Origin: Acholeplasmataceae bacterium
Lineage (GTDB): Bacteria > Bacillota_I > Bacilli_A > Acholeplasmatales > Acholeplasmataceae
NCBI GenBank assembly: GCA_963675245.1
Contig: OY775910.1
Span: forward strand, 1,280,001-1,344,000
Direction: 5' to 3'
Length of the DNA stretch: 64,000 nt
This document shows positions 52,043 to 63,330 of this stretch, one piece after another (position 1 is the first letter of the stretch; every line of letters starts with the position of its first letter). Made by a program: the position numbers and the translations under genes. A model generated the notes under the pieces. The model was not told the DNA's origin. It worked only from the letters and a program-made list of their open reading frames with translations, and did no database searches.

Positions 52043-53554
52043 ATGGTCATGGGTAATAAAAAACTCGCAATTTTATTTTTTCTATCAGTTTTATTAGCCT
52101 TTTTTTCCGGCTATTTTTCATCAACAGTGATTGAAAATCAATCGTCTATTTATAGTTCAGAAGCATTTACCTCAATCACTGATGAATTAGAACAATACTA
52201 TTATTACGAGATTGATGATGAAGAAATAAGCCGTGCGTTTATCGCATCCTTAGAAGCGATCATTAATCAGTATGCCATTGATAATGATGATCCATATACG
52301 AGGTTAAATGTAATACCCACAAGTATTACACCTTCAGATGCAGAGTCATTTGTCGGATTAGGCATATCATTTACGTTTAATGAAAATCATGAATTAGTCA
52401 TTTATGATGTGATGAACGAAAGTTCTGTGTTTGGCGTCATTTATCCAAATGATCGTATTATAGGTATGATATTTAATAGTGAACGATTGATGTTTGCTGA
52501 TGTCACAGAAGATGACGTCGTGGATTATATGTCAGGTGTTAAAGATGAAATTAAGTCATTAATTGTTGTTAATCCTGATAACGAAGAAGTGATCGTTGAA
52601 GCTACATATCAACGTATTGAAACACCAACAGCTTATACGAATCTTGATGTCAACACTGAAGATATTGCTTATATAAAAATCACTGAATTTTCTGCTTATG
52701 AACAACATGTGACAGCAGGAACTTCTCAAGTGTTTAGTAGTCTTTTATTAGACTTAGAAGATTCAATATTGACAGATGATACAAAAACGTTAATCATTGA
52801 CTTAAGAGATAATCCTGGTGGTTCATTATCAGCATTAAATAATATAGATTCTAATCAACCAGCAGGCATTACACAACAATTACTAACCAACGATCCTGCA
52901 AATCCAATTTTTACCATGACGGATAATGATGGTGTTGTGACTGAATTTTTTGGACGTTTAAGCAATCCTAAAGACTATGATATTAAACTATTAGTGAATG
53001 GTCATTCTGCTAGTGCTGCTGAAGTTTTAGCCGCTACACTAATGGATGCTGGTTATTCACTTTATGGTGAAGAAACGTATGGCAAAGGTGTTTATCAAAA
53101 CACGGTCTATTTACAAAATATTTCTAATTCAATATATGATTTCTACTTAACTTATACAGAAGGTACTTGGGAATATGGTTCATCATTGAACGTGATGGAT
53201 ACACCATTAACTGTTAATGCACTTGAACAAACAGACTTGTATACGATGGAAATGCCAGTTTATACTGGAGAAATAGCATTTGATCAAGTTTCTGAAGGCT
53301 TAGCAGTCTATCAGCAATTCTTAAATCTATATTTTGATTATCAAGGTGAAGATTTGATTCGTACGGATGGCTACTTTGATTTAAACACAGAAACAGCTAT
53401 CACACAGTTTCAAACCGATATGAATATTACAGTTACCGGCATATTAGATTTAGACACTTCCCATGCAGTTTATGATTACTTTAAAGCAGTTCGTAGTGAT
53501 GCAAACTATGATTTACAACTTCAAACACTGATTCAATTAATCGAAGGAGCATAA
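52043..53554 (+). CDS. ctpA: S41 C-terminal processing peptidase with PDZ-like and PG-binding-like domains
   Basis: N-terminal TM, DPYT, IDLRDNPGG, SASAAE, TYGKG; C-terminal DGYFD..TE.AI..FQ.......TG.LD..T. Confidence 0.88.
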   Translation: MVMGNKKLAILFFLSVLLAFFSGYFSSTVIENQSSIYSSEAFTSITDELEQYYYYEIDDEEISRAFIASLEAIINQYAIDNDDPYTRLNVIPTSITPSDAESFVGLGISFTFNENHELVIYDVMNESSVFGVIYPNDRIIGMIFNSERLMFADVTEDDVVDYMSGVKDEIKSLIVVNPDNEEVIVEATYQRIETPTAYTNLDVNTEDIAYIKITEFSAYEQHVTAGTSQVFSSLLLDLEDSILTDDTKTLIIDLRDNPGGSLSALNNIDSNQPAGITQQLLTNDPANPIFTMTDNDGVVTEFFGRLSNPKDYDIKLLVNGHSASAAEVLAATLMDAGYSLYGEETYGKGVYQNTVYLQNISNSIYDFYLTYTEGTWEYGSSLNVMDTPLTVNALEQTDLYTMEMPVYTGEIAFDQVSEGLAVYQQFLNLYFDYQGEDLIRTDGYFDLNTETAITQFQTDMNITVTGILDLDTSHAVYDYFKAVRSDANYDLQLQTLIQLIEGA

Positions 53555-55837: not shown

Positions 55838-56482
55838 ATGACAGTAGAGTTTTATTTAGATTATTTGTGTCCAAAGTGTTATATACAACATAAAGTATTA
55901 GAAGACTTAGTTGATGAAAAACAACTTGCTGCAGATGATATCATTTATCGTAGTTATGAAATGGTGAATCATGAGCAATTTGATCAAAATTTGTCTTTTA
56001 TTGATTTTATTGCGAAATATAAGCATCTGCCTCATGAAGAGGTTATTGCATTTTTAAATGAAAGACAGATAGAAATTAGATTATTTCCAATCCATAATGT
56101 CCATAAAATGGCACATCTTGCTAAAAAAGAGAACAAATCCTTTTTATATAGCAAAGCAGTTTTTAAGGCAATCTATGAAGATCACTTTGATTTATCAGAT
56201 GTTGAGAAACTCAAAGAATTAGCATTAAATGTTGGATTACCTAGCACGTTGGTAGATGAAGTATTAACGACCGATAAATTTTCAAATGCTGTCATTTCAA
56301 ATAAAGAAAATGCACTATTAAAAGGTGTTTCTGATCTCCCTTTTATTCGTATTAATAAGCATGTTAAATTAAAGGGATTATCCGATGAATATGATATTAT
56401 CGCAGCGATGAACAGAGAAAGATTGGGCGATAAAGAGTATTGTGTCGGTGATAATTGTGATCGACACTTAAAAATCAGTTAA
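55838..56482 (+). CDS. DsbA/FrnE family thiol oxidoreductase
   Basis: DYLCPKCY, GV..LPF, C-terminal CVGDNC. Confidence 0.85.
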   Translation: MTVEFYLDYLCPKCYIQHKVLEDLVDEKQLAADDIIYRSYEMVNHEQFDQNLSFIDFIAKYKHLPHEEVIAFLNERQIEIRLFPIHNVHKMAHLAKKENKSFLYSKAVFKAIYEDHFDLSDVEKLKELALNVGLPSTLVDEVLTTDKFSNAVISNKENALLKGVSDLPFIRINKHVKLKGLSDEYDIIAAMNRERLGDKEYCVGDNCDRHLKIS

Positions 56483-56506
56483 ACTTCCATTTATGGAAGT
56501 TTTTTT
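56481..56506 (+). terminator. Intrinsic terminator after the DsbA-family gene
   Basis: AAACTTCCAT-TT-ATGGAAGTTTTTTT. Confidence 0.85.
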
Positions 56507-56686
56507 ATTTCATTGATATAATGAAAATAGATTTTAATAGGAAAAATTGTGTGATTTCATTGATTTAAGGGGTCTTTACCGCTAAATTGGTGAATATACA
56601 TGGAAAATAAGCTATAAGCATGGTAAAATAATAGGTGATATTAAGCCTTTTTTTATTATATAAAAAAAACATAAAGGAGCGTATTC

Positions 56687-58066
56687 ATGGCACACTTGTT
56701 TGACACAATACCATCTACATTTTTTAGCCTACTCGCTTCTCCAAATAGACATGTATATGTCGATTGCATATTTATTATTTATCGAGCAATCGATAGTATT
56801 GAAGATGCTTTTCAAGGGGATCGTGATTTTATCGTCGGTAAATTAATTGATTATTTCGATGATCATGCTTCCGATGAATTTGAGGATGTAGAGGAAGAAG
56901 AACTAGCACATACTAGTCGTCAAAAAGCAAACCATGTTATTTCTGTACTCAAGAAGCATGGATGGCTCGGTGAAGAAGAATTAGGGGATTACCGTACATC
57001 GTTAAACTTATTTGATTATTCTATTAGAATTATTGATTTACTCGAAAAAATTGAAATAAAATCACAACCAGAATATACGGGTGAAATATTTGCGGTTTAT
57101 TCACTTTTAGCATCATTTACGATTGAAGAGGGCATTGGCGTGCTTGAGCAAGCAGCGATTAAGACCGAAGATATCATGCGTAAATTAAAAGCGTTAAAAG
57201 CGAACATATACCGCTTTTACTATGATATAACAAAGAAACATAAACGTGAAGATTTACAAGCATTACTTGAAAAATTACTTGTAGAATATAAACAAAACTT
57301 TTTTGATTCAGCTTATTATAATTTGAAAACAACCGACAGTTTATCACGCTATAAAAGAGGCATTTTAGAGTCTGTCAATAATATCATCAACAATGAAGAA
57401 ATTATGGATATGCTTGCTCAAAGTGTGATGCAGATTAAACATTTAGAAGATTACAATGATGGTTATCAATATGTTGAAGACCAATTAAGATCCATTTCTA
57501 ATAATTTTAGTGCACTAGAATATCTAATTTTAGCGATTGATAGAAAAAACGAACAGTATGTTAGTGCAGCTGCATCAAAAATTTTATTTTTCACTAATCA
57601 ATCTGATGACATTGAAGGAATATTTAATCGCTTGTTTAGAATCATACTATCGAAAGCTGATGTTGATTATTCGATGATTTTCAGATTGGTACAAACAAAA
57701 AATTTAGATACTGAATCACTCTATAATCAAAGACGTGCTAGACAAGAAACGGTACCTGATGAAATTAATTATGACGAGAACATGATTTCTGAGGCATTTC
57801 GAAACCAAAAGATTAAAGCTTTACTTAAAAATAATATTTATGGCAAAAAAGAAATTGATCGCTATGTGCTCTCACTATTAAGAGAAAGTGAAACGGTAGA
57901 AGCTGGTAGTATTCAATTAGACACACAAGAAGATTTCGTGAAACTCATTTTAATTTTCTTATACTCGAAATCTGTGGGTATGCACTATAATATCGAACTT
58001 ACTGGAAAAGTGGTAACGAATCAGCATATCAGTTTCCAAAACTTTGTGATTAAGGGGTTGAATTGA
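56687..58066 (+). CDS. jetA: Wadjet JetA/MksF-like kleisin (DUF5716-like)
   Basis: LF..IP..FFSLLASPNR..Y N-terminus, L...GWL winged helix; first gene of a three-gene unit ending in an SMC ATPase. Confidence 0.8.
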   Translation: MAHLFDTIPSTFFSLLASPNRHVYVDCIFIIYRAIDSIEDAFQGDRDFIVGKLIDYFDDHASDEFEDVEEEELAHTSRQKANHVISVLKKHGWLGEEELGDYRTSLNLFDYSIRIIDLLEKIEIKSQPEYTGEIFAVYSLLASFTIEEGIGVLEQAAIKTEDIMRKLKALKANIYRFYYDITKKHKREDLQALLEKLLVEYKQNFFDSAYYNLKTTDSLSRYKRGILESVNNIINNEEIMDMLAQSVMQIKHLEDYNDGYQYVEDQLRSISNNFSALEYLILAIDRKNEQYVSAAASKILFFTNQSDDIEGIFNRLFRIILSKADVDYSMIFRLVQTKNLDTESLYNQRRARQETVPDEINYDENMISEAFRNQKIKALLKNNIYGKKEIDRYVLSLLRESETVEAGSIQLDTQEDFVKLILIFLYSKSVGMHYNIELTGKVVTNQHISFQNFVIKGLN

Positions 58067-58707
58067 TGAATAAGACGCAAGCAATGAAACAACTAAATGA
58101 AAATTACATGTTGTTAAAAGAGGGCGAAAAAAACAATTTTTCAAGAATTGTAAATAAGTTATTTCAAGTGAATTTCATCACCAAGAAAAAACCAGGTGAA
58201 TCAAATGATTATCGGTTTATCTTAGCGTGGAAAGAAATTTTTGAAGCTTTTTTCGCACTCACTGATTTTCAACTAAATATTCATCGTGAAGATGAAGTTG
58301 TATATATTGCTAATGAGCAAGTATTCAATCATATGAGACTTAAAAAATCTGAAAGTATTATCATTTTGGTATTACGTATTTTATATCAACGTAAAAAAGA
58401 TTTTGTGACATTAGATGAAAATGTTGAAATATATCTACACGAAATTCATTCAGAATTAATGCGTGTCGGTTACCTTGACAATAAGCGCATTACCAAAGAT
58501 AAATTAAAACCAGCCTTATCGTTTTTAAGAGGCTATAATATTATTGATTATATCGATCGTGGATTGCATGATGATGCAAGAATCAAAATTTATCCAACGA
58601 TTTTATATGTCACTAATTTAGAAGGTATTAAAGAAGTCATTGATAGGTTTGAAGATTATACATCTGAAGGAGGTCCTGTAAGCGATGAAGAAACTGACGA
58701 AGATTAA
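58066..58707 (+). CDS. jetB: Wadjet JetB/MksE-like KITE subunit (DUF4194-like)
   Basis: ES..ILVLR.LY, L..YNII, I.IYPTI; TGATG overlap with jetA. Confidence 0.8.
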   Translation: MNKTQAMKQLNENYMLLKEGEKNNFSRIVNKLFQVNFITKKKPGESNDYRFILAWKEIFEAFFALTDFQLNIHREDEVVYIANEQVFNHMRLKKSESIIILVLRILYQRKKDFVTLDENVEIYLHEIHSELMRVGYLDNKRITKDKLKPALSFLRGYNIIDYIDRGLHDDARIKIYPTILYVTNLEGIKEVIDRFEDYTSEGGPVSDEETDED

Positions 58708-61700
58708 ATTAGTCAATTGGCACCTCTTTACAAATCAGACGATCGATATTAGAGATAATGCACTTATCTCAGGTGAAAATGGATCTGGTAAATCAACCTT
58801 ACTTGACGCGATGCAATATCTGCTTGTTGGTGGGCGCTCAGGTGCGAAGTTTAATATTGCTGCAACAGATGATGCAAGACGTACATTAGAAGGTTATGTC
58901 CGTGGCCGTATTGGTGCTGAAAATAAAGAATATTTAAGAAATGGTGATGTGATTACACATATTGCGCTAGAATTTTTTGATGAACAATCGAAACAATATT
59001 CTGTGATTGGTTCTATTCTTGAGTTACCTAAAAGCGGACAACTAAAAGAAAGACTATATTTACTTGAAAATGTGTCTATCCATGATAGCCTCTATCTTGA
59101 GAAAAAATATCCAAGAGATTATAAGAGCATCAAAGGCTACCTAAAAGATTTAGATATCGATTTTAAACCTTTTGATACGCAAAAGAAATACCGTGAAGCG
59201 CTTGCTCATTTCTTTGGTATGGACGCCACTAAGTATGCGAAAATATTACCAAAAGCTTTAGCGTTTAGATCGATCGATTTACAACAGTTTGTCTTTGAAT
59301 TTTTATTAGACGATGATCCGATTGACATTCAATCACTCAAAAATAATGTTGCACAATTGAAACGTGTTGAAGCTCAAATTCAATTTGATAAAGAAAAATT
59401 AACAAAGTTAGATGCTTTATCAGAGCTTGGTGAAGATATCGTTCATAACAAGCAACAAAAAGATATTAATACGCTCATAGATCAACTCAATTGGATTGAA
59501 AAACGTGAAGCGTTTATTAAAGAAAATGAATCAAAACTCACACATATTGGCAAGCAACTTGACTACTTAAGAGAAGCAAAGCAACAAATCGATGATCAAA
59601 TTGATGAGAATGATATTGCTATTTTAAATTTAGAACGTGCTAAAAGCGATTCAGATTTATCGAGAACATTGTCTTCTTATCAGGATGCATTAAAGAAGAA
59701 AGGTCAAGAATTTGACCAACAAAAAGAAATATTATCACAAGTTAAACAAATGCTTGCAAAAGAATTTACAACGATGAAAGAACTCACGAATATCGTACCG
59801 AATGCAGCGATTAAAGCATTTGTTCAATATTATCAAACAGCGATGGACAACATTGATCATGAAGAGATCTCTAATCATTTAGAGATCATTAGTGGCGAAG
59901 TCTCTTCACTTCTTCAAGCCTATCATACTGAACGCAACAAAGTTGAACAAGATAAAACAGAATTATCAGAAAAGATACGTGAGTCACAACAGCGTTTAGG
60001 ACAATTGAAAAAACATGTTAAGACATACCCATTTCATGTCCAAAAACTAATGACAGCACTTAATGATGGTCTCTCAAACATGTATCAAAAAGAAGTTAAT
60101 GTCCAACCTCTATGTGAATTACTAGAAGTTAATGATGAAACATGGCGTAATGCACTTGAAGGTTATTTAGGAGGACAACGTTTTGATATTATTGTTGACC
60201 CATCATATTTTAACGATGCATTAGACATTTACGATCAAGTAAAAGTTGAACAAAAGATTTATGGTGTTGGTTTAGTAAACACACAAAACCTTTCTGAATA
60301 TAGTGAAGTAAGTGCAAATAGCTTAGCAGCGAAACTTGATACAGACCACCGTTATGCAAGACTATATGCCAATATGTTATTAAATGGCGTTACCACGGTA
60401 GAAAATGTTCAAGATTTAAAGAAATATAGACGTGCAGTAACACGTACTTGTATGACGTATGGTAATTATACAGCTAGACAAATAAATCCAAGAAATTATG
60501 AAGTGCCTTTCATTGGTCTAAGAGCAACTAATATTCAACAAGAACAAGAAAGTAAACTTTTAGAGCGCTTAGAAGCACAAATGAACACACTATATGATTT
60601 ATCTGACATGCAAACATCCGTCGTTCGCTTATTAAATCAATCAAAGAGTGCACAATTATTACACCAAGGACAAATTCGCTATTTTGATTTAATCAAACAA
60701 ACGAGAAGAGAATACACACAAATTGAAGATAGTGTGGCATCGTTAGCTAAAGATCAGAGTTTGAAACAATTGGATAAACAACTGGATGCGGCTAAAATCA
60801 TTAGACGAGATTTAAGACTTCAATCTGATCAACTTGTTGGAAAGATTGCTACACAACGTGAAGATCGTCAAAAAGTCATGGACCGTATTGAAGATGTTCA
60901 AGAAAAACTAGATGATTTTATGCAACAACAAAAAAATCTTGCTCAAAAACACCCAGAAAAATTATCGATTGCAAATACACAGTATTATGCCTTAAAAAAT
61001 AGATATAAACAAGATCATGATAAGATTACCAATTATCTTTCAGAATCAACGGCAGCGATTCAATCACAAATTATTAAAGGTGAAGCGAATCTTGCTACGC
61101 AAATGAAAGATTACAATCTTTCCTATCATTTCGGTGCAGAACCGACATTAGAAGGTTTAGTGACATATGAACAAGAAGCCAACAAGATTAGAAATAATAA
61201 TCTTGTTCATTATGAGTTTGAAGCAACTGAACTTAGACGAAATTCGGAAATTGGATTTAAAGAAGAGTTTGTTGGTAAGCTTCGTGCATCTATTGAAAAT
61301 GCGCAACAACAAATCGCTGAACTTAACTTTGCTTTAACGGATAAAACATTTGGTAGTGACTCATATCAATTAACTTATAAAGCCTCAGATCATCCTGATT
61401 ACAAGCTTTATTATGATATTATTATGCATACGCAGGCGATCGAAAAGCATACACTATTCACAGAAGGTTTATCAAAACGTAAAGAAACAATTTTAACAGA
61501 ATTATTTGAAAAGATCGCATCGAATGATCCTGAGTATGATAATTTAACATATAAGTTTTTGGATTATAGAAATTATATGTCTTATGACATAGAAGTCACG
61601 AATATCAATGGTAATAAATCACTCTTCTCCAAAGTATCTAAAGAAAAGAGTGGTGGTGAAACTCAAGTACCATTCTATATCGTTATTGCTGCATCTTTCC

Positions 61701-61960
61701 AACAACTATTAACTAAAAACAGAAGAATTGACTCGGGTTGCATCGTTTTATTCGATGAAGCATTCAATAATATGGATGAATCAAGAATTGATGCCATGAT
61801 GAAATTCTATAACAGCTTATCAATTCAACTGTTGATTGCTGTACCACCACAACGTGTATCAAACATTATTAATTATGTGAATACAAGTTTAGTCATTGTT
61901 AAAGACAATGATTACGCAATTGTAGAAACATTTAATGATAACAGATTGATTGGATTTTAA
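58685..61960 (+). CDS. jetC: Wadjet JetC/MksB-like SMC-family ATPase
   Basis: LVNWH, Walker A GENGSGKST, long coiled coils, FLDYRNY, signature KSGGETQ, Walker B LFDEAFNNMD. Confidence 0.9.
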   Translation: MKKLTKIKLVNWHLFTNQTIDIRDNALISGENGSGKSTLLDAMQYLLVGGRSGAKFNIAATDDARRTLEGYVRGRIGAENKEYLRNGDVITHIALEFFDEQSKQYSVIGSILELPKSGQLKERLYLLENVSIHDSLYLEKKYPRDYKSIKGYLKDLDIDFKPFDTQKKYREALAHFFGMDATKYAKILPKALAFRSIDLQQFVFEFLLDDDPIDIQSLKNNVAQLKRVEAQIQFDKEKLTKLDALSELGEDIVHNKQQKDINTLIDQLNWIEKREAFIKENESKLTHIGKQLDYLREAKQQIDDQIDENDIAILNLERAKSDSDLSRTLSSYQDALKKKGQEFDQQKEILSQVKQMLAKEFTTMKELTNIVPNAAIKAFVQYYQTAMDNIDHEEISNHLEIISGEVSSLLQAYHTERNKVEQDKTELSEKIRESQQRLGQLKKHVKTYPFHVQKLMTALNDGLSNMYQKEVNVQPLCELLEVNDETWRNALEGYLGGQRFDIIVDPSYFNDALDIYDQVKVEQKIYGVGLVNTQNLSEYSEVSANSLAAKLDTDHRYARLYANMLLNGVTTVENVQDLKKYRRAVTRTCMTYGNYTARQINPRNYEVPFIGLRATNIQQEQESKLLERLEAQMNTLYDLSDMQTSVVRLLNQSKSAQLLHQGQIRYFDLIKQTRREYTQIEDSVASLAKDQSLKQLDKQLDAAKIIRRDLRLQSDQLVGKIATQREDRQKVMDRIEDVQEKLDDFMQQQKNLAQKHPEKLSIANTQYYALKNRYKQDHDKITNYLSESTAAIQSQIIKGEANLATQMKDYNLSYHFGAEPTLEGLVTYEQEANKIRNNNLVHYEFEATELRRNSEIGFKEEFVGKLRASIENAQQQIAELNFALTDKTFGSDSYQLTYKASDHPDYKLYYDIIMHTQAIEKHTLFTEGLSKRKETILTELFEKIASNDPEYDNLTYKFLDYRNYMSYDIEVTNINGNKSLFSKVSKEKSGGETQVPFYIVIAASFQQLLTKNRRIDSGCIVLFDEAFNNMDESRIDAMMKFYNSLSIQLLIAVPPQRVSNIINYVNTSLVIVKDNDYAIVETFNDNRLIGF

Positions 61961-61971
61961 CAGGAGGACAT

Positions 61972-63291
61972 ATGAAATCAATGACATCAGGTAAACTTGC
62001 ATCACTTGCCGTTAGTGCAAGTCAAAAACCAGTACAACAAGCGTTAAAGCGTGTGCTTTATGCCAATGATATTCAGACGGCTATTCAAAAACAAGAACGC
62101 ATTCCAGCCAATCAGTTTGTGTTTTCAAATGAGATTAAAACATTACCGGTAGCAAACCAAAAAGCAAGCGGTCGTTGTTGGATCTTTGCAGGTCTAAATG
62201 TCCTGCGTGAATTAGTCGCAAATAAATATCAATTAACGTCCTTTGAATTCTCACAAAACTATACAGCTTTTTATGACAAACTCGAAAAAATTAATTACTT
62301 TATTGAATCCATTGATGATTTTTTAGAAGTTGATCAAGATGACAGAACCTTGCAACACATTTTAAAAAATGGTATTCAAGATGGTGGTCAATGGGATATG
62401 TTCGTAAGTCTTATAGAAAAATATGGGGTTGTTCCTAAAGCATATATGGAAGAGACGGTCTCATCTTCAAAAACAAGACCTATGAATCAGATCATTAATT
62501 TTAAGTTAAGACAATATGCTGCTAATGCGAGAAAGCTACATAAAGAAAGAAAATCATTAGACGTATTAAAAGAGAAAACACTCGATGAACTTTATACATT
62601 TTTAGTGACAGCATTTGGTGAACCACCAAGCGTCTTTGATTTCAATTATGTGAATAAAAATAATGAATATCAAGTGATTAAAAATTTAACACCTCAAAGC
62701 TTTTATAAAGAGGCAGTTGGTCTTGATTTAAATCATTACGTTTCCGTGATAAATGCACCAACAAACGATAAACCTTATATGCATTCATACACGGTTTCAT
62801 ATTTAGGTAATGTTGTTGGTGGTAAAGACATTAAATATTTAAATGTTGATATGAAACGATTAAAATCACTAGTCATTGCGCAATTAGATGCAAAAGAAGT
62901 GGTATGGTTTGGATCAGATGTTGGACGCTATGGTGATCGTACACTAGGTGTGTGGGATTCAGAGTATTATGATGATACATTACTCGGTATGGATATGAGT
63001 ATGAGTAAAGAAGATCAGTTAGATTATGCGCAAAGCTTAATGACACACGCGATGGTGATTACAGGTGTTCATTTAGATGACAATCAACCTGTTCGTTTTA
63101 AGATTCAAAATAGTTGGGGAGATACAACAGGCAATAAAGGTTACTATTTGGCATCTGATGCTTGGTTTGATCAATTTGTTTATCAAGCAGTCATTCATAA
63201 GAAATATTTATCTAAAGAAGAATTAATAGCATTTGAAGAAGAACCTAAGGTCTTAAAACCATGGGATCCAATGGGTGCTTTAGCCGACTAA
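61972..63291 (+). CDS. pepC: Aminopeptidase C / bleomycin hydrolase (peptidase C1B)
   Basis: NQKASGRCW, DGGQWDM, THAM, QNSWG, PWDPMGALA. Confidence 0.96.
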   Translation: MKSMTSGKLASLAVSASQKPVQQALKRVLYANDIQTAIQKQERIPANQFVFSNEIKTLPVANQKASGRCWIFAGLNVLRELVANKYQLTSFEFSQNYTAFYDKLEKINYFIESIDDFLEVDQDDRTLQHILKNGIQDGGQWDMFVSLIEKYGVVPKAYMEETVSSSKTRPMNQIINFKLRQYAANARKLHKERKSLDVLKEKTLDELYTFLVTAFGEPPSVFDFNYVNKNNEYQVIKNLTPQSFYKEAVGLDLNHYVSVINAPTNDKPYMHSYTVSYLGNVVGGKDIKYLNVDMKRLKSLVIAQLDAKEVVWFGSDVGRYGDRTLGVWDSEYYDDTLLGMDMSMSKEDQLDYAQSLMTHAMVITGVHLDDNQPVRFKIQNSWGDTTGNKGYYLASDAWFDQFVYQAVIHKKYLSKEELIAFEEEPKVLKPWDPMGALAD

Positions 63292-63300
63292 AAAAAGTAG

Positions 63301-63330
63301 AGCCTAATCGTCGAATTAGGCTTTTCTTTT
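63301..63330 (+). terminator. Intrinsic terminator after pepC
   Basis: AGCCTAAT-CGTCGA-ATTAGGCT followed by TTTCTTTT. Confidence 0.8.

Follow-up and report, generated by a model that had tools for sequence, protein, structure and literature searches.

The locus carries four genes on the forward strand of the window, the whole 64,000-nucleotide stretch of Acholeplasmataceae DNA that was analysed. They are jetA (56687–58066; MukF/MksF-type kleisin, 459 aa), jetB (58066–58707; MukE/MksE-type KITE subunit with DUF4194, 214 aa), jetC (58685–61960; MukB/MksB-type SMC ATPase, 1091 aa) and pepC (61972–63291; cysteine peptidase of the aminopeptidase C/bleomycin-hydrolase family, 439 aa). The jetA TGA and the jetB ATG have one base in common to form TGATG at 58064–58068, and the list of open reading frames places the jetB start a codon further upstream, at a TTG (58063). 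The jetB TAA (58705–58707) lies beyond the jetC ATG (58685), giving an overlap of 23 nt. After the jetC TAA (61958–61960), a gap of 11 nt holds AGGAGG at 61963–61968 and leads to the pepC ATG at 61972.

An intrinsic-terminator-like hairpin with a 9-bp stem and a T-run (56481–56502, forward strand) appears to end the upstream dsbA-family gene and separate it from the operon. Another with a 10-bp stem and a T-run (63299–63324, forward strand) appears to end the jetABC-pepC unit. Ten such sites turned up in the scan, compared with 3.0 ± 2.0 in shuffled sequence. The promoter-like site at 56601–56629 on the forward strand (TGGAAA, 17 nt, TAAAAT, with TG preceding the −10) is a consensus match only, as the region has 37 of its kind where chance alone would give 39.6. 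Between it and jetA lies an AAGGAG ribosome-binding site (RBS; 56674–56679, forward strand). Judged from the short gap, its own RBS and the single terminator after it, pepC is probably cotranscribed with jetABC.

The operon is surrounded by genes for an S41 peptidase, RecX, an amidohydrolase, DsbA, tRNA-Pro and glutathione peroxidase, with no mobile-element gene among them. No JetD or TOPRIM reading frame flanks jetABC-pepC. The GC content is 0.30–0.34 at the locus and 0.31–0.36 in the flanks. An earlier reading of the letters alone, hereafter the sequence-only reading, had described the overlapping genes, the closely following pepC with its RBS, the two terminators and a setting free of mobile genes and of any clear compositional break. 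All of these were seen again. Its mention of the Acholeplasmatales also agrees with the relatives that carry names.

The encoded proteins

The best HMM models for jetABC are those of type I Wadjet (JetA1, JetB1 and JetC1). JetA matches Pfam PF18982 (DUF5716) at 7.6e-83 over model positions 10–432 of 434, and PADLOC JetA1 at 1.3e-98. JetB matches Pfam DUF4194 at 3.2e-24 and PADLOC JetB1 at 4.9e-65. JetC covers positions 1–1089 of the 1097 in PADLOC JetC1 (E=0, 1063.6 bits) and also matches Pfam SbcC_Walker_B (2.7e-25) and AAA_29 (4e-20). NCBIfam has no model naming these operons, and JetC stays far below the cut-offs of its MukB equivalog NF003422 (28.9 versus 699 bits) and its full-length SMC model TIGR02168 (28.3 versus 567 bits).

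The ATPase motifs of JetC are intact as claimed before, with Walker A GENGSGKS at 30–37, the signature SGGE at 989–992 and Walker B at D1024/E1025. Against the PDB, a JetC profile of 24 sequences matched the JetC of 8AS8/8BFN/8Q72 at 1.4e-49, whereas the single sequence found only a MukB head and no JetC chain. JetC retains the larynx Phe (F925), the equivalent of which docks JetD in the E. coli JET complex. Against the nearest species, dN is 0.069 for jetC, 0.075 for jetB and 0.117 for pepC, dS being saturated (>1.3) so that dN/dS ratios are rough.

PepC matches Pfam PF03051 (Peptidase_C1_2) at 1.4e-160 with 535 bits over model positions 2–438 of 438, and the aminopeptidase C 4K7C over its full length at 3e-132. 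The predicted catalytic residues Q63, C69, H359 and N380 agree with the Gln/Cys/His/Asn set noticed previously. It is an ordinary full-length aminopeptidase C with no extra domain and no match to any PADLOC family. The fold, the four catalytic residues and the GALA tail are common to the aminopeptidase C/bleomycin hydrolase family (4K7C, 1CB5 and 1GCB). Apart from one added C-terminal Asp (GALAD), nothing sets it off from aminopeptidase C.

Searches for JetD and for other SMC complexes

The genome is closed and 99.96% complete, and JetD is absent from all of it in six independent searches. Pfam JetD_C and DUF3322 gave no match at E<=1, two JetD proteins of relatives used as queries gave none at E<=10, and across all 6198 frames a local JetD HMM reached at most 12.5 bits versus 239 bits for the positive control. 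One 12-bit match to PADLOC JetD1, far from the locus, is a GlgC-type nucleotidyltransferase. Nor was JetD found in any of the other genomes of the genus searched (8/8). Thus the operon does lack JetD, as the sequence-only reading had it, and its suggestion of a JetD encoded elsewhere is contradicted. Without JetD, JetABC is unable to cleave DNA.

The same genome has no match for the SMC hinge, ScpA, ScpB or ParB_N, and TIGR02168 reaches at most 12 bits in it against the 567-bit cut-off. ScpA was found in 0/61 relatives. Four of these 61 gave SMC_hinge matches, which are the small hinge inside jetC and not a separate SMC. The control search missed the ScpA of Thermus, Deinococcus and Bacteroides, so the absence of Smc-ScpAB is concluded from the joint negatives for ScpA, ScpB, the hinge and TIGR02168. 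A check for canonical smc-scpA-scpB, proposed earlier, thus came out negative, and JetABC is the only SMC complex of the genome because no Smc, ScpA, ScpB or ParB was found.

In a sample of the class, the presence and absence of SMC and of ScpA follow one shared family-by-family pattern. JetA occurs in 38/87 genomes of the SMC-less families versus 13/112 of the SMC-bearing ones. Several families without SMC and ScpA have little or no JetA (0/8 in f14, 0/13 in f19, 0/12 in f21, 1/22 in f4 and 4/16 in f12), and JetA is gone from 9/23 genomes of the genus g2. Hence, survival without a recognised SMC complex seems possible and JetABC need not be essential.

Inheritance of the operon

JetC is present in 49/61 relatives and its identity within the family declines smoothly from 91% to 43%. 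JetA is present in 167/201 sampled genomes of the order, including genomes of 0.4–0.9 Mb (11/11 in genus g15 and 14/23 in g2), versus 20/201 for JetD_C. The dsbA-jetABC synteny is retained across genera and other surroundings are family-specific: sepF comes right after jetC at 8/8 loci of f2, the order padR-jetABC-rsmE is seen at 3/3 of f22 and glgC/glgD at 3/4 of f12. In Acholeplasmataceae (f1), the neighbours are ptsI, pepC and genes for a DEAD-box helicase, trigger factor or RNase J. Throughout, the JetD-less core operon keeps to housekeeping contexts, and its inheritance is vertical in both the family and the order. It tracks taxonomy and does not have the patchy, horizontally transferred distribution of defence genes.

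The nuclease-bearing form is found in addition to the core operon. At least two JetA matches occur in 16 of the 20 JetD-positive genomes, and one of the relatives (G035) has the core jetABC-pepC locus plus a separate jetABCD locus. Near-identical JetD-linked copies are found in different families (G337c47 in f27 and G048c38 in f2).

In the JetC tree, the 16 JetD-less copies of Acholeplasmataceae fall together in a single clade (SH-aLRT 99), grouped with JetD-linked copies. The sister families have a JetD-less clade of their own, and the two are separate whether the tree is built with LG+G4 or with the LG+C20 mixture model. Enforcing one JetD-less clade costs 161.6 lnL (AU p 1e-42, for a grouping defined after tree inspection). 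The nesting of the Acholeplasmataceae clade among JetABCD, apart from the other JetD-less clade, points to repeated domestication of JetABC.

Proposed role and known systems

The reading that we favour, and consider likely, is that jetABC was once a type I Wadjet, lost JetD and now persists as a housekeeping chromosome condensin. The operon would encode a complete MukBEF-like SMC motor of the JetA kleisin, the JetB KITE dimer and the JetC ATPase. Its ancestor would be the plasmid-restriction system JetABCD, and after the loss of the nuclease it would have been retained for housekeeping as the sole SMC complex. In the absence of an ordinary SMC condensin, this motor probably organises the chromosome. 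Loaded onto it, JetABC most likely compacts and individualises the chromosome by ATP-driven loop extrusion like MukBEF in enterobacteria and MksBEF in Pseudomonas, both the chromosomal extrusion and the condensin role being inferred. The missing Smc, ScpA, ScpB and ParB and the vertical inheritance in the family and the order support the same proposal, made in the sequence-only reading for a wall-less bacterium, of a domesticated nuclease-free condensin.

The more exciting idea of that reading was an SMC sensor with a protease effector, PepC taking the place of JetD. The 11-nt gap, the separate RBS and the one terminator closing the unit fit it, and so does the adjacency of pepC to jetC in 16/32 JetC-positive genomes of the family, even in the deep branch G012 with a JetC only 42% identical. 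Yet the adjacency is not conserved: among the other 16, nine have no pepC, three have it elsewhere, two have ptsI in between, one has it 6.6 kb off and one reaches a contig end. The two genes also occur independently, as the sister family f4 has PepC in 8/8 genomes with JetC in 1/8, whereas f2, f3 and f5 have JetC in 16/16 without an orthologous PepC (one 35% paralogue). Moreover, jetABC of A. laidlawii, A. oculi, A. equifetale and A. granularum has no pepC in the 3 kb downstream, and PepC shows neither a PADLOC match nor an added domain. The protease-effector idea is thus almost certainly wrong, and the more modest suggestion that PepC is an incidental passenger holds well. PepC would be an ordinary cytoplasmic aminopeptidase that shares the transcript through inherited gene order, linked to jetABC by that order and not by function. 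Scarcely credible is a decaying Wadjet remnant, left by a recent loss of JetD or with its cognate jetD elsewhere: the lack of a jetD adjoining jetC is its sole support, and against it stand three full-length genes with intact motifs, conservation across the family, dN of jetC and jetB below that of pepC, and no JetD found in this genome or in the congeners searched.

An immune or dual-function JetABC without JetD, which we hold to be unlikely while giving it some weight, would use complete loop extrusion to identify small circular DNA, which it would then neutralise or hand on. The uncut DNA might be compacted or silenced, as proposed for Smc5/6, or a nuclease encoded elsewhere and lacking homology to JetD might dock on the larynx Phe of JetC. 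The operon is unmistakably a type I Wadjet nested among JetABCD, and the docking Phe is kept in 16/16 of the JetD-less Acholeplasmataceae copies versus its loss from 15/31 of the other JetD-less copies. Passive inactivation and "dual function machines" are both raised in the accessible text of Liu et al. 2022. However, the vertical inheritance, the housekeeping surroundings and the retention in the 0.4–0.9 Mb genomes are unlike patchy defence genes, a true JetABCD where present is an additional copy next to the core operon, and jetC is not followed by any fourth gene conserved across the family. The Phe belongs to a head-proximal motif that is strongly conserved, and its role may be structural. 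Its retention could also come from a recent JetD loss or a partner not yet recognised.

As to how the condensin arose, it is an evenly balanced possibility that the proposed JetABCD-to-MukBEF transition was replayed in the Acholeplasmataceae ancestor, independently and at a comparatively recent time. The ancestral lineage would already have lost Smc-ScpAB and ParB, with the sister families running an older JetD-less JetABC. A bona fide type I Wadjet of the Acholeplasmataceae ancestor would then have shed its nuclease to become the only chromosome-folding SMC motor. Being near JetABCD in sequence and having the docking Phe, this JetABC may still be able to activate JetD in trans.

The switch resembles the one proposed from Wadjet to MukBEF and is seen much nearer its defence-system relatives. 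With the domesticated operon and true JetABCD side by side in relatives, the lineage is a useful natural test of the hypothesis that a defence system became a condensin. If the replay is true, such a switch could be put to a direct test in organisms that can be cultured, A. laidlawii and its relatives. In annotation, the defence finders will call these operons incomplete Wadjet, whereas jetABC in the Acholeplasma-group genomes are probably core chromosome-maintenance genes.

The JetD-less operon type is already known as FEB, and the replacement of Smc-ScpAB in this lineage appears not to have been discussed before. Data S1 of Bürmann et al. 2025 (PMC7617805), in its accessible text, lists several "Tenericutes bacterium" assemblies as having FEB operons, does not contain the words Acholeplasma and Phytoplasma and offers no analysis of these lineages. 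The searchable literature, the tables of Petrushenko et al. 2011 (PMC3179180) being outside its scope, yielded no discussion of the replacement of Smc-ScpAB by JetABC here, no such report of systems lacking JetD or MksG or of MksB as sole condensin, and nothing relevant for Acholeplasma or phytoplasma. No mention was found in the accessible part of the Cavalier-Smith paper. A paper on Ca. P. solani has a "Smc-like" protein, which is an orthologue of a membrane protein. As far as their accessible texts go, Liu 2022 and a review (PMC10586767) propose from structure alone that MukBEF derives from a JetABCD-like ancestor, and hold the two kinds of motor interchangeable.

Among the known systems, type I Wadjet or JetABCD (MksBEFG, EptABCD; the E. 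coli GF4-3 JET of 8AS8/8BFN/8Q72) shares the jetA-jetB-jetC order with this operon. Unlike it, this operon lacks JetD (DUF3322 and JetD_C), which normally comes right after jetC, and is vertical in a housekeeping context. MksBEF without MksG, as in P. aeruginosa MksBEF and the FEB operons of Data S1, is likewise a three-gene kleisin-KITE-SMC operon without a nuclease, and in P. aeruginosa it contributes to chromosome organisation according to the accessible text, but the operon here stands alone across the whole family and order. MukBEF of the enterobacteria belongs to the Wadjet/Mks group, has no nuclease and is the sole SMC complex in a lineage without Smc-ScpAB, and the same applies to JetABC here. 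The enterobacteria are also not known to have ParB, which was likewise not found in this genome. The differences from MukBEF are that JetC has 1091 aa versus 1482 aa for the MukB chains and scores far below the cut-off of NF003422, and that its divergence from JetABCD is much smaller, the sequence being plainly Wadjet-I-like.

The operon and the SMC content of its genome

Four closely packed genes lie on the + strand of the window, namely jetA (56687-58066), jetB (58066-58707), jetC (58685-61960) and pepC (61972-63291), with terminator-like hairpins on the 5′ side (56481-56502) and the 3′ side (63299-63324) of the unit. The encoded kleisin, KITE protein and SMC ATPase are assigned to type I Wadjet (JetABCD) over their whole lengths by Pfam and PADLOC (JetA1 at 1.3e-98, JetB1 at 4.9e-65 and JetC1 at E=0 with 1063.6 bits), and pepC encodes a full-length aminopeptidase C (4K7C, 3e-132). 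JetC has the Walker A (GENGSGKS at 30), signature (SGGE at 989) and Walker B (D1024/E1025) motifs, and the PepC residues Q63, C69, H359 and N380 are present. The jetA/jetB junction is TGATG, jetB runs 23 nt into jetC, and the 11-nt gap between jetC and pepC contains AGGAGG. The sequence-only reading of a jetABC operon followed by pepC and lacking the Toprim nuclease gene jetD is thus real, with its genes, motifs, hairpins and junctions all recovered.

The flanks are housekeeping genes for an S41 peptidase, RecX, an amidohydrolase, DsbA, tRNA-Pro and glutathione peroxidase, and no GC break was seen between the locus and its flanks in the window. The S41 (C-terminal processing) peptidase (52043-53554) carries a PG_binding_1 peptidoglycan-binding domain, which is odd for a group regarded as wall-less.

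The genome of the window is a single closed contig of 1,626,300 bp (99.96 % complete), and JetD was sought across all of it in six ways. Pfam JetD_C and DUF3322 gave no match at E<=1, and two JetD proteins of relatives gave none at E<=10. The sole match to the best PADLOC JetD1 model, at 12 bits, is a GlgC-type nucleotidyltransferase. A local HMM from 11 JetD proteins detected no JetD in any of the 6198 stop-to-stop frames of at least 50 aa; its top score was 12.5 bits at a 69-aa frame, and a JetD fragment kept out of the model as a control scored 239 bits. The idea that the nuclease is encoded elsewhere in this genome found no backing from any of the six routes.

Profile searches found no SMC hinge, ScpA or ScpB in this genome, an unexpected result, and TIGR02168 for full-length SMC peaked at 12 bits, its cut-off being 567. 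No SMC complex other than JetABC is therefore detectable there, and the canonical smc-scpA-scpB set that the sequence-only reading suggested looking for is missing. ParB/parS is the usual loading system for Smc, and no ParB_N domain occurs anywhere in the closed genome, which is thus without ParB as well as without Smc-ScpAB. The SMC, ScpA, ScpB and ParB searches were positive in control genomes, B. subtilis and L. lactis among them.

Distribution of jetABC, JetD and Smc-ScpAB

The named relatives by JetC are Acholeplasmataceae, the closest being a MAG of this family at 91 % identity, followed by cultured isolates labelled Mycoplasmatota or Tenericutes at 73–75 % and by A. laidlawii, A. oculi, A. 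equifetale and A. granularum at 56–58 %. JetC is present in 49 of 61 relatives (the window's own genome included), and its identity declines smoothly from 91 % to 43 % within the family, with values of about 30 % elsewhere in the order. ScpA was found in none of the 61, and JetD_C exceeded its cut-off in six. The only four 'SMC_hinge' matches among them (23–25 bits) sit within jetC itself and represent no separate SMC.

Across 201 genomes of the order, JetA occurs in 167 and JetD_C in 20. JetA is found in 75/85 Acholeplasmataceae and, among the order's other families, in 83/86 of f2, 5/5 of f3, 2/2 of f5 and 1/22 of f4. It is retained even in genomes of 0.4–0.9 Mb (11/11 in genus g15 and 14/23 in g2).

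In the class sample of 200 scored genomes, ScpA (109) and SMC (111) match in presence and absence family by family. Both are missing in twelve families (87 genomes), except one partial SMC match in family f22. The families with in-frame TGA codons in the matches, which suggest genetic code 4 as in mycoplasmas, retain both. JetA is found in 38/87 genomes of the SMC-less families versus 13/112 of the SMC-bearing ones. The fit to the SMC loss is imperfect, as families f14 (JetA 0/8), f19 (0/13), f21 (0/12), f4 (1/22) and most of f12 (4/16) have neither. No SbcC_Walker_B-type protein was found in three test genomes (G039, G216 and G221). Lineages of this type may be devoid of any recognisable SMC complex, or theirs may be highly divergent.

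In the JetD-positive genomes, JetD lies mostly in a second, separate jetABCD locus besides the core operon. At least two JetA matches occur in 16 of these 20, a count inflated by split matches, and in genome G035 the jetABC-pepC and jetABCD loci are on different contigs. G050 is another relative with a jetABCD. The JetC proteins of full jetABCD loci are near-identical between G337 contig 47 (L133, family f27) and G048 contig 38 (L150, family f2), with branch lengths of 0.08 and 0.04. A true Wadjet appears, as this likeness indicates, to have moved horizontally between these two lineages recently. Such near-identity across families is the behaviour expected of mobile defence genes and the opposite of that of the JetD-less copies.

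Family f9, SMC- and ScpA-bearing with larger genomes, has a JetD-less jetABC besides Smc-ScpAB and often jetABCD too (L145, L146 and L158). These JetD-less f9 copies are the closest out-of-order relatives of the window's JetC, at 39 % identity.

Neighbours of jetABC and the position of pepC

In the JetD-less operons, the gene 3′ of jetC is never jetD but an ordinary gene that differs from lineage to lineage. In the Acholeplasmataceae it is pepC, ptsI or a gene for a DEAD-box helicase, trigger factor, RNase J or PfkB kinase; the jetABC-pepC order is also found in isolates (L088, L124 and L084). In several genera dsbA is located on the 5′ side of jetABC. Family f22 has padR-jetABC-rsmE in 3/3 loci and f12 has glgC/glgD neighbours in 3/4. 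In all eight JetD-less f2 loci examined (L047-L051 and L154-L156), the cell-division gene sepF comes immediately after jetC or overlaps its end, a conserved arrangement that ties the SMC operon to the division machinery. In f27, an ORF of 149–157 aa without Pfam match follows jetC in 3/3 JetD-less loci (L130:3213-3662, L131:6852-7316 and L132:372-845) and is a possible lineage-specific accessory gene.

The start of ptsI (PTS enzyme I) lies a few bases from the jetC stop or, as is often the case, overlaps it in several Acholeplasmataceae genera (L034, L036-L039, L042 and L109), A. laidlawii included. The ptsI-like gene of G018 (L042) has a much lower score and is possibly degenerate. At the A. 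laidlawii locus, an IS66-family transposase gene (L109:8318-9244) lies about 330 bp 3′ of ptsI.

Two roles had been proposed for pepC, one as the protease effector of an SMC sensor and the other as an incidental passenger of the operon. The former fails on gene order, the ground that the sequence-only reading itself set for refuting it, since adjacency is not conserved across the family's 32 genomes with JetC (that of the window among them): pepC is directly 3′ of jetC in 16, separated from it by ptsI in two, 6.6 kb away in one, elsewhere in three, hidden by contig ends in one and not found in nine. PepC occurs in 32 of the 61 relatives and matches no PADLOC model. The passenger role is borne out by the same counts and by the sister family f4, where PepC is in 8/8 genomes and JetC in 1/8; in f2, f3 and f5, JetC is in 16/16 genomes and orthologous PepC in none. 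The linkage is also present in the deep branch G012, so judging from these gene orders it is probably an old arrangement of the family that has been freely broken. To the nearest species, dN is lower for jetC (0.069) and jetB (0.075) than for pepC (0.117), while the dN/dS ratios of about 0.05 are rough because dS is saturated.

JetC phylogeny and kinship with nuclease-free condensins

The 59 proteins of the JetC tree, 12 JetD-linked and the other 47 encoded in JetD-less operons, were chosen non-exhaustively from the fetched loci. The 16 JetD-less Acholeplasmataceae copies form a single clade (SH-aLRT 99), which groups with JetD-linked copies of the same order and a JetD-less pair from f9. The other half holds the JetD-less copies of f2, f3, f5, f22, f28, f12, f27 and f29, every family being monophyletic. 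LG+G4 and the LG+C20+F+G4 mixture model gave the same result. Mapping the JetD label onto the tree takes three changes. Forcing 40 JetD-less copies (those of f1, the Acholeplasmataceae, and of f2, f3, f5, f12, f22 and f27-f29, with f7 left out and the group named after the tree was seen) into one clade is worse by 161.6 log-likelihood units (AU p 1e-42).

On our reading, loss of the nuclease and domestication of the motor would have happened on more than one occasion, the event in the Acholeplasmataceae being the more recent and starting from a true type I JetABCD. As the tree is unrooted, JetD loss is preferred over gain from plausibility only.

In the E. coli JET structure, as described in the preprint, a pocket of JetD takes F919 of the JetC 'larynx', and F919 mutation abolishes restriction (bioRxiv 10.1101/2023.11.03.565488). 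A 24-sequence JetC profile aligned the E. coli JetC chain (8AS8 and others) at 1.4e-49, and the sole Phe near this position in the window's JetC is F925, in the 'LF' of HTLFTEG, where the local alignment is only moderately reliable. With this same reliability, the docking column is Phe in 11/12 JetD-linked versus 32/47 JetD-less copies. Among the latter, it is Phe in all 16 Acholeplasmataceae copies, Asp in all f12 and f27 copies and L, I, M, N, V or Y in eight others. The pattern fits a JetD loss that is older in the second clade than in the Acholeplasmataceae. The full retention in the Acholeplasmataceae also leaves room for a Phe kept for a structural role or for an unknown JetC partner.

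We consider it most likely, with reasonable confidence, that the JetD-less type I Wadjet operon serves as the condensin of this lineage; pepC is a passenger. In our literature search, with Petrushenko 2011 outside its scope, nothing was found on a loss and replacement of Smc-ScpAB in the Acholeplasma group. The catalogue of Wadjet-group operons by Bürmann et al. 2025 covers about 257,000 genomes, and its authors state that several members are without MksG/JetD. Their main text does not mention these lineages, and 'Acholeplasma' and 'Phytoplasma' are absent from the accessible supplement text. In their Data S1, several assemblies named 'Tenericutes bacterium' are listed with 'FEB' operons, and strain MO-XQ with an 'FEBG' operon. 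MO-XQ additionally carries a JetD-less core copy with 74 % identity to that of the window.

What makes the case notable is its evolutionary background, with Smc-ScpAB replaced across the whole order, jetABC kept in minimal genomes, and an origin from a real JetABCD that appears comparatively recent, in culturable organisms. MukBEF is described as a nuclease-free member of the Wadjet/Mks group, and MksBEF without MksG is described as working in chromosome management in P. aeruginosa. The JetD-less jetABC of the window belongs with these nuclease-free Muk/Mks condensins, a known kind.
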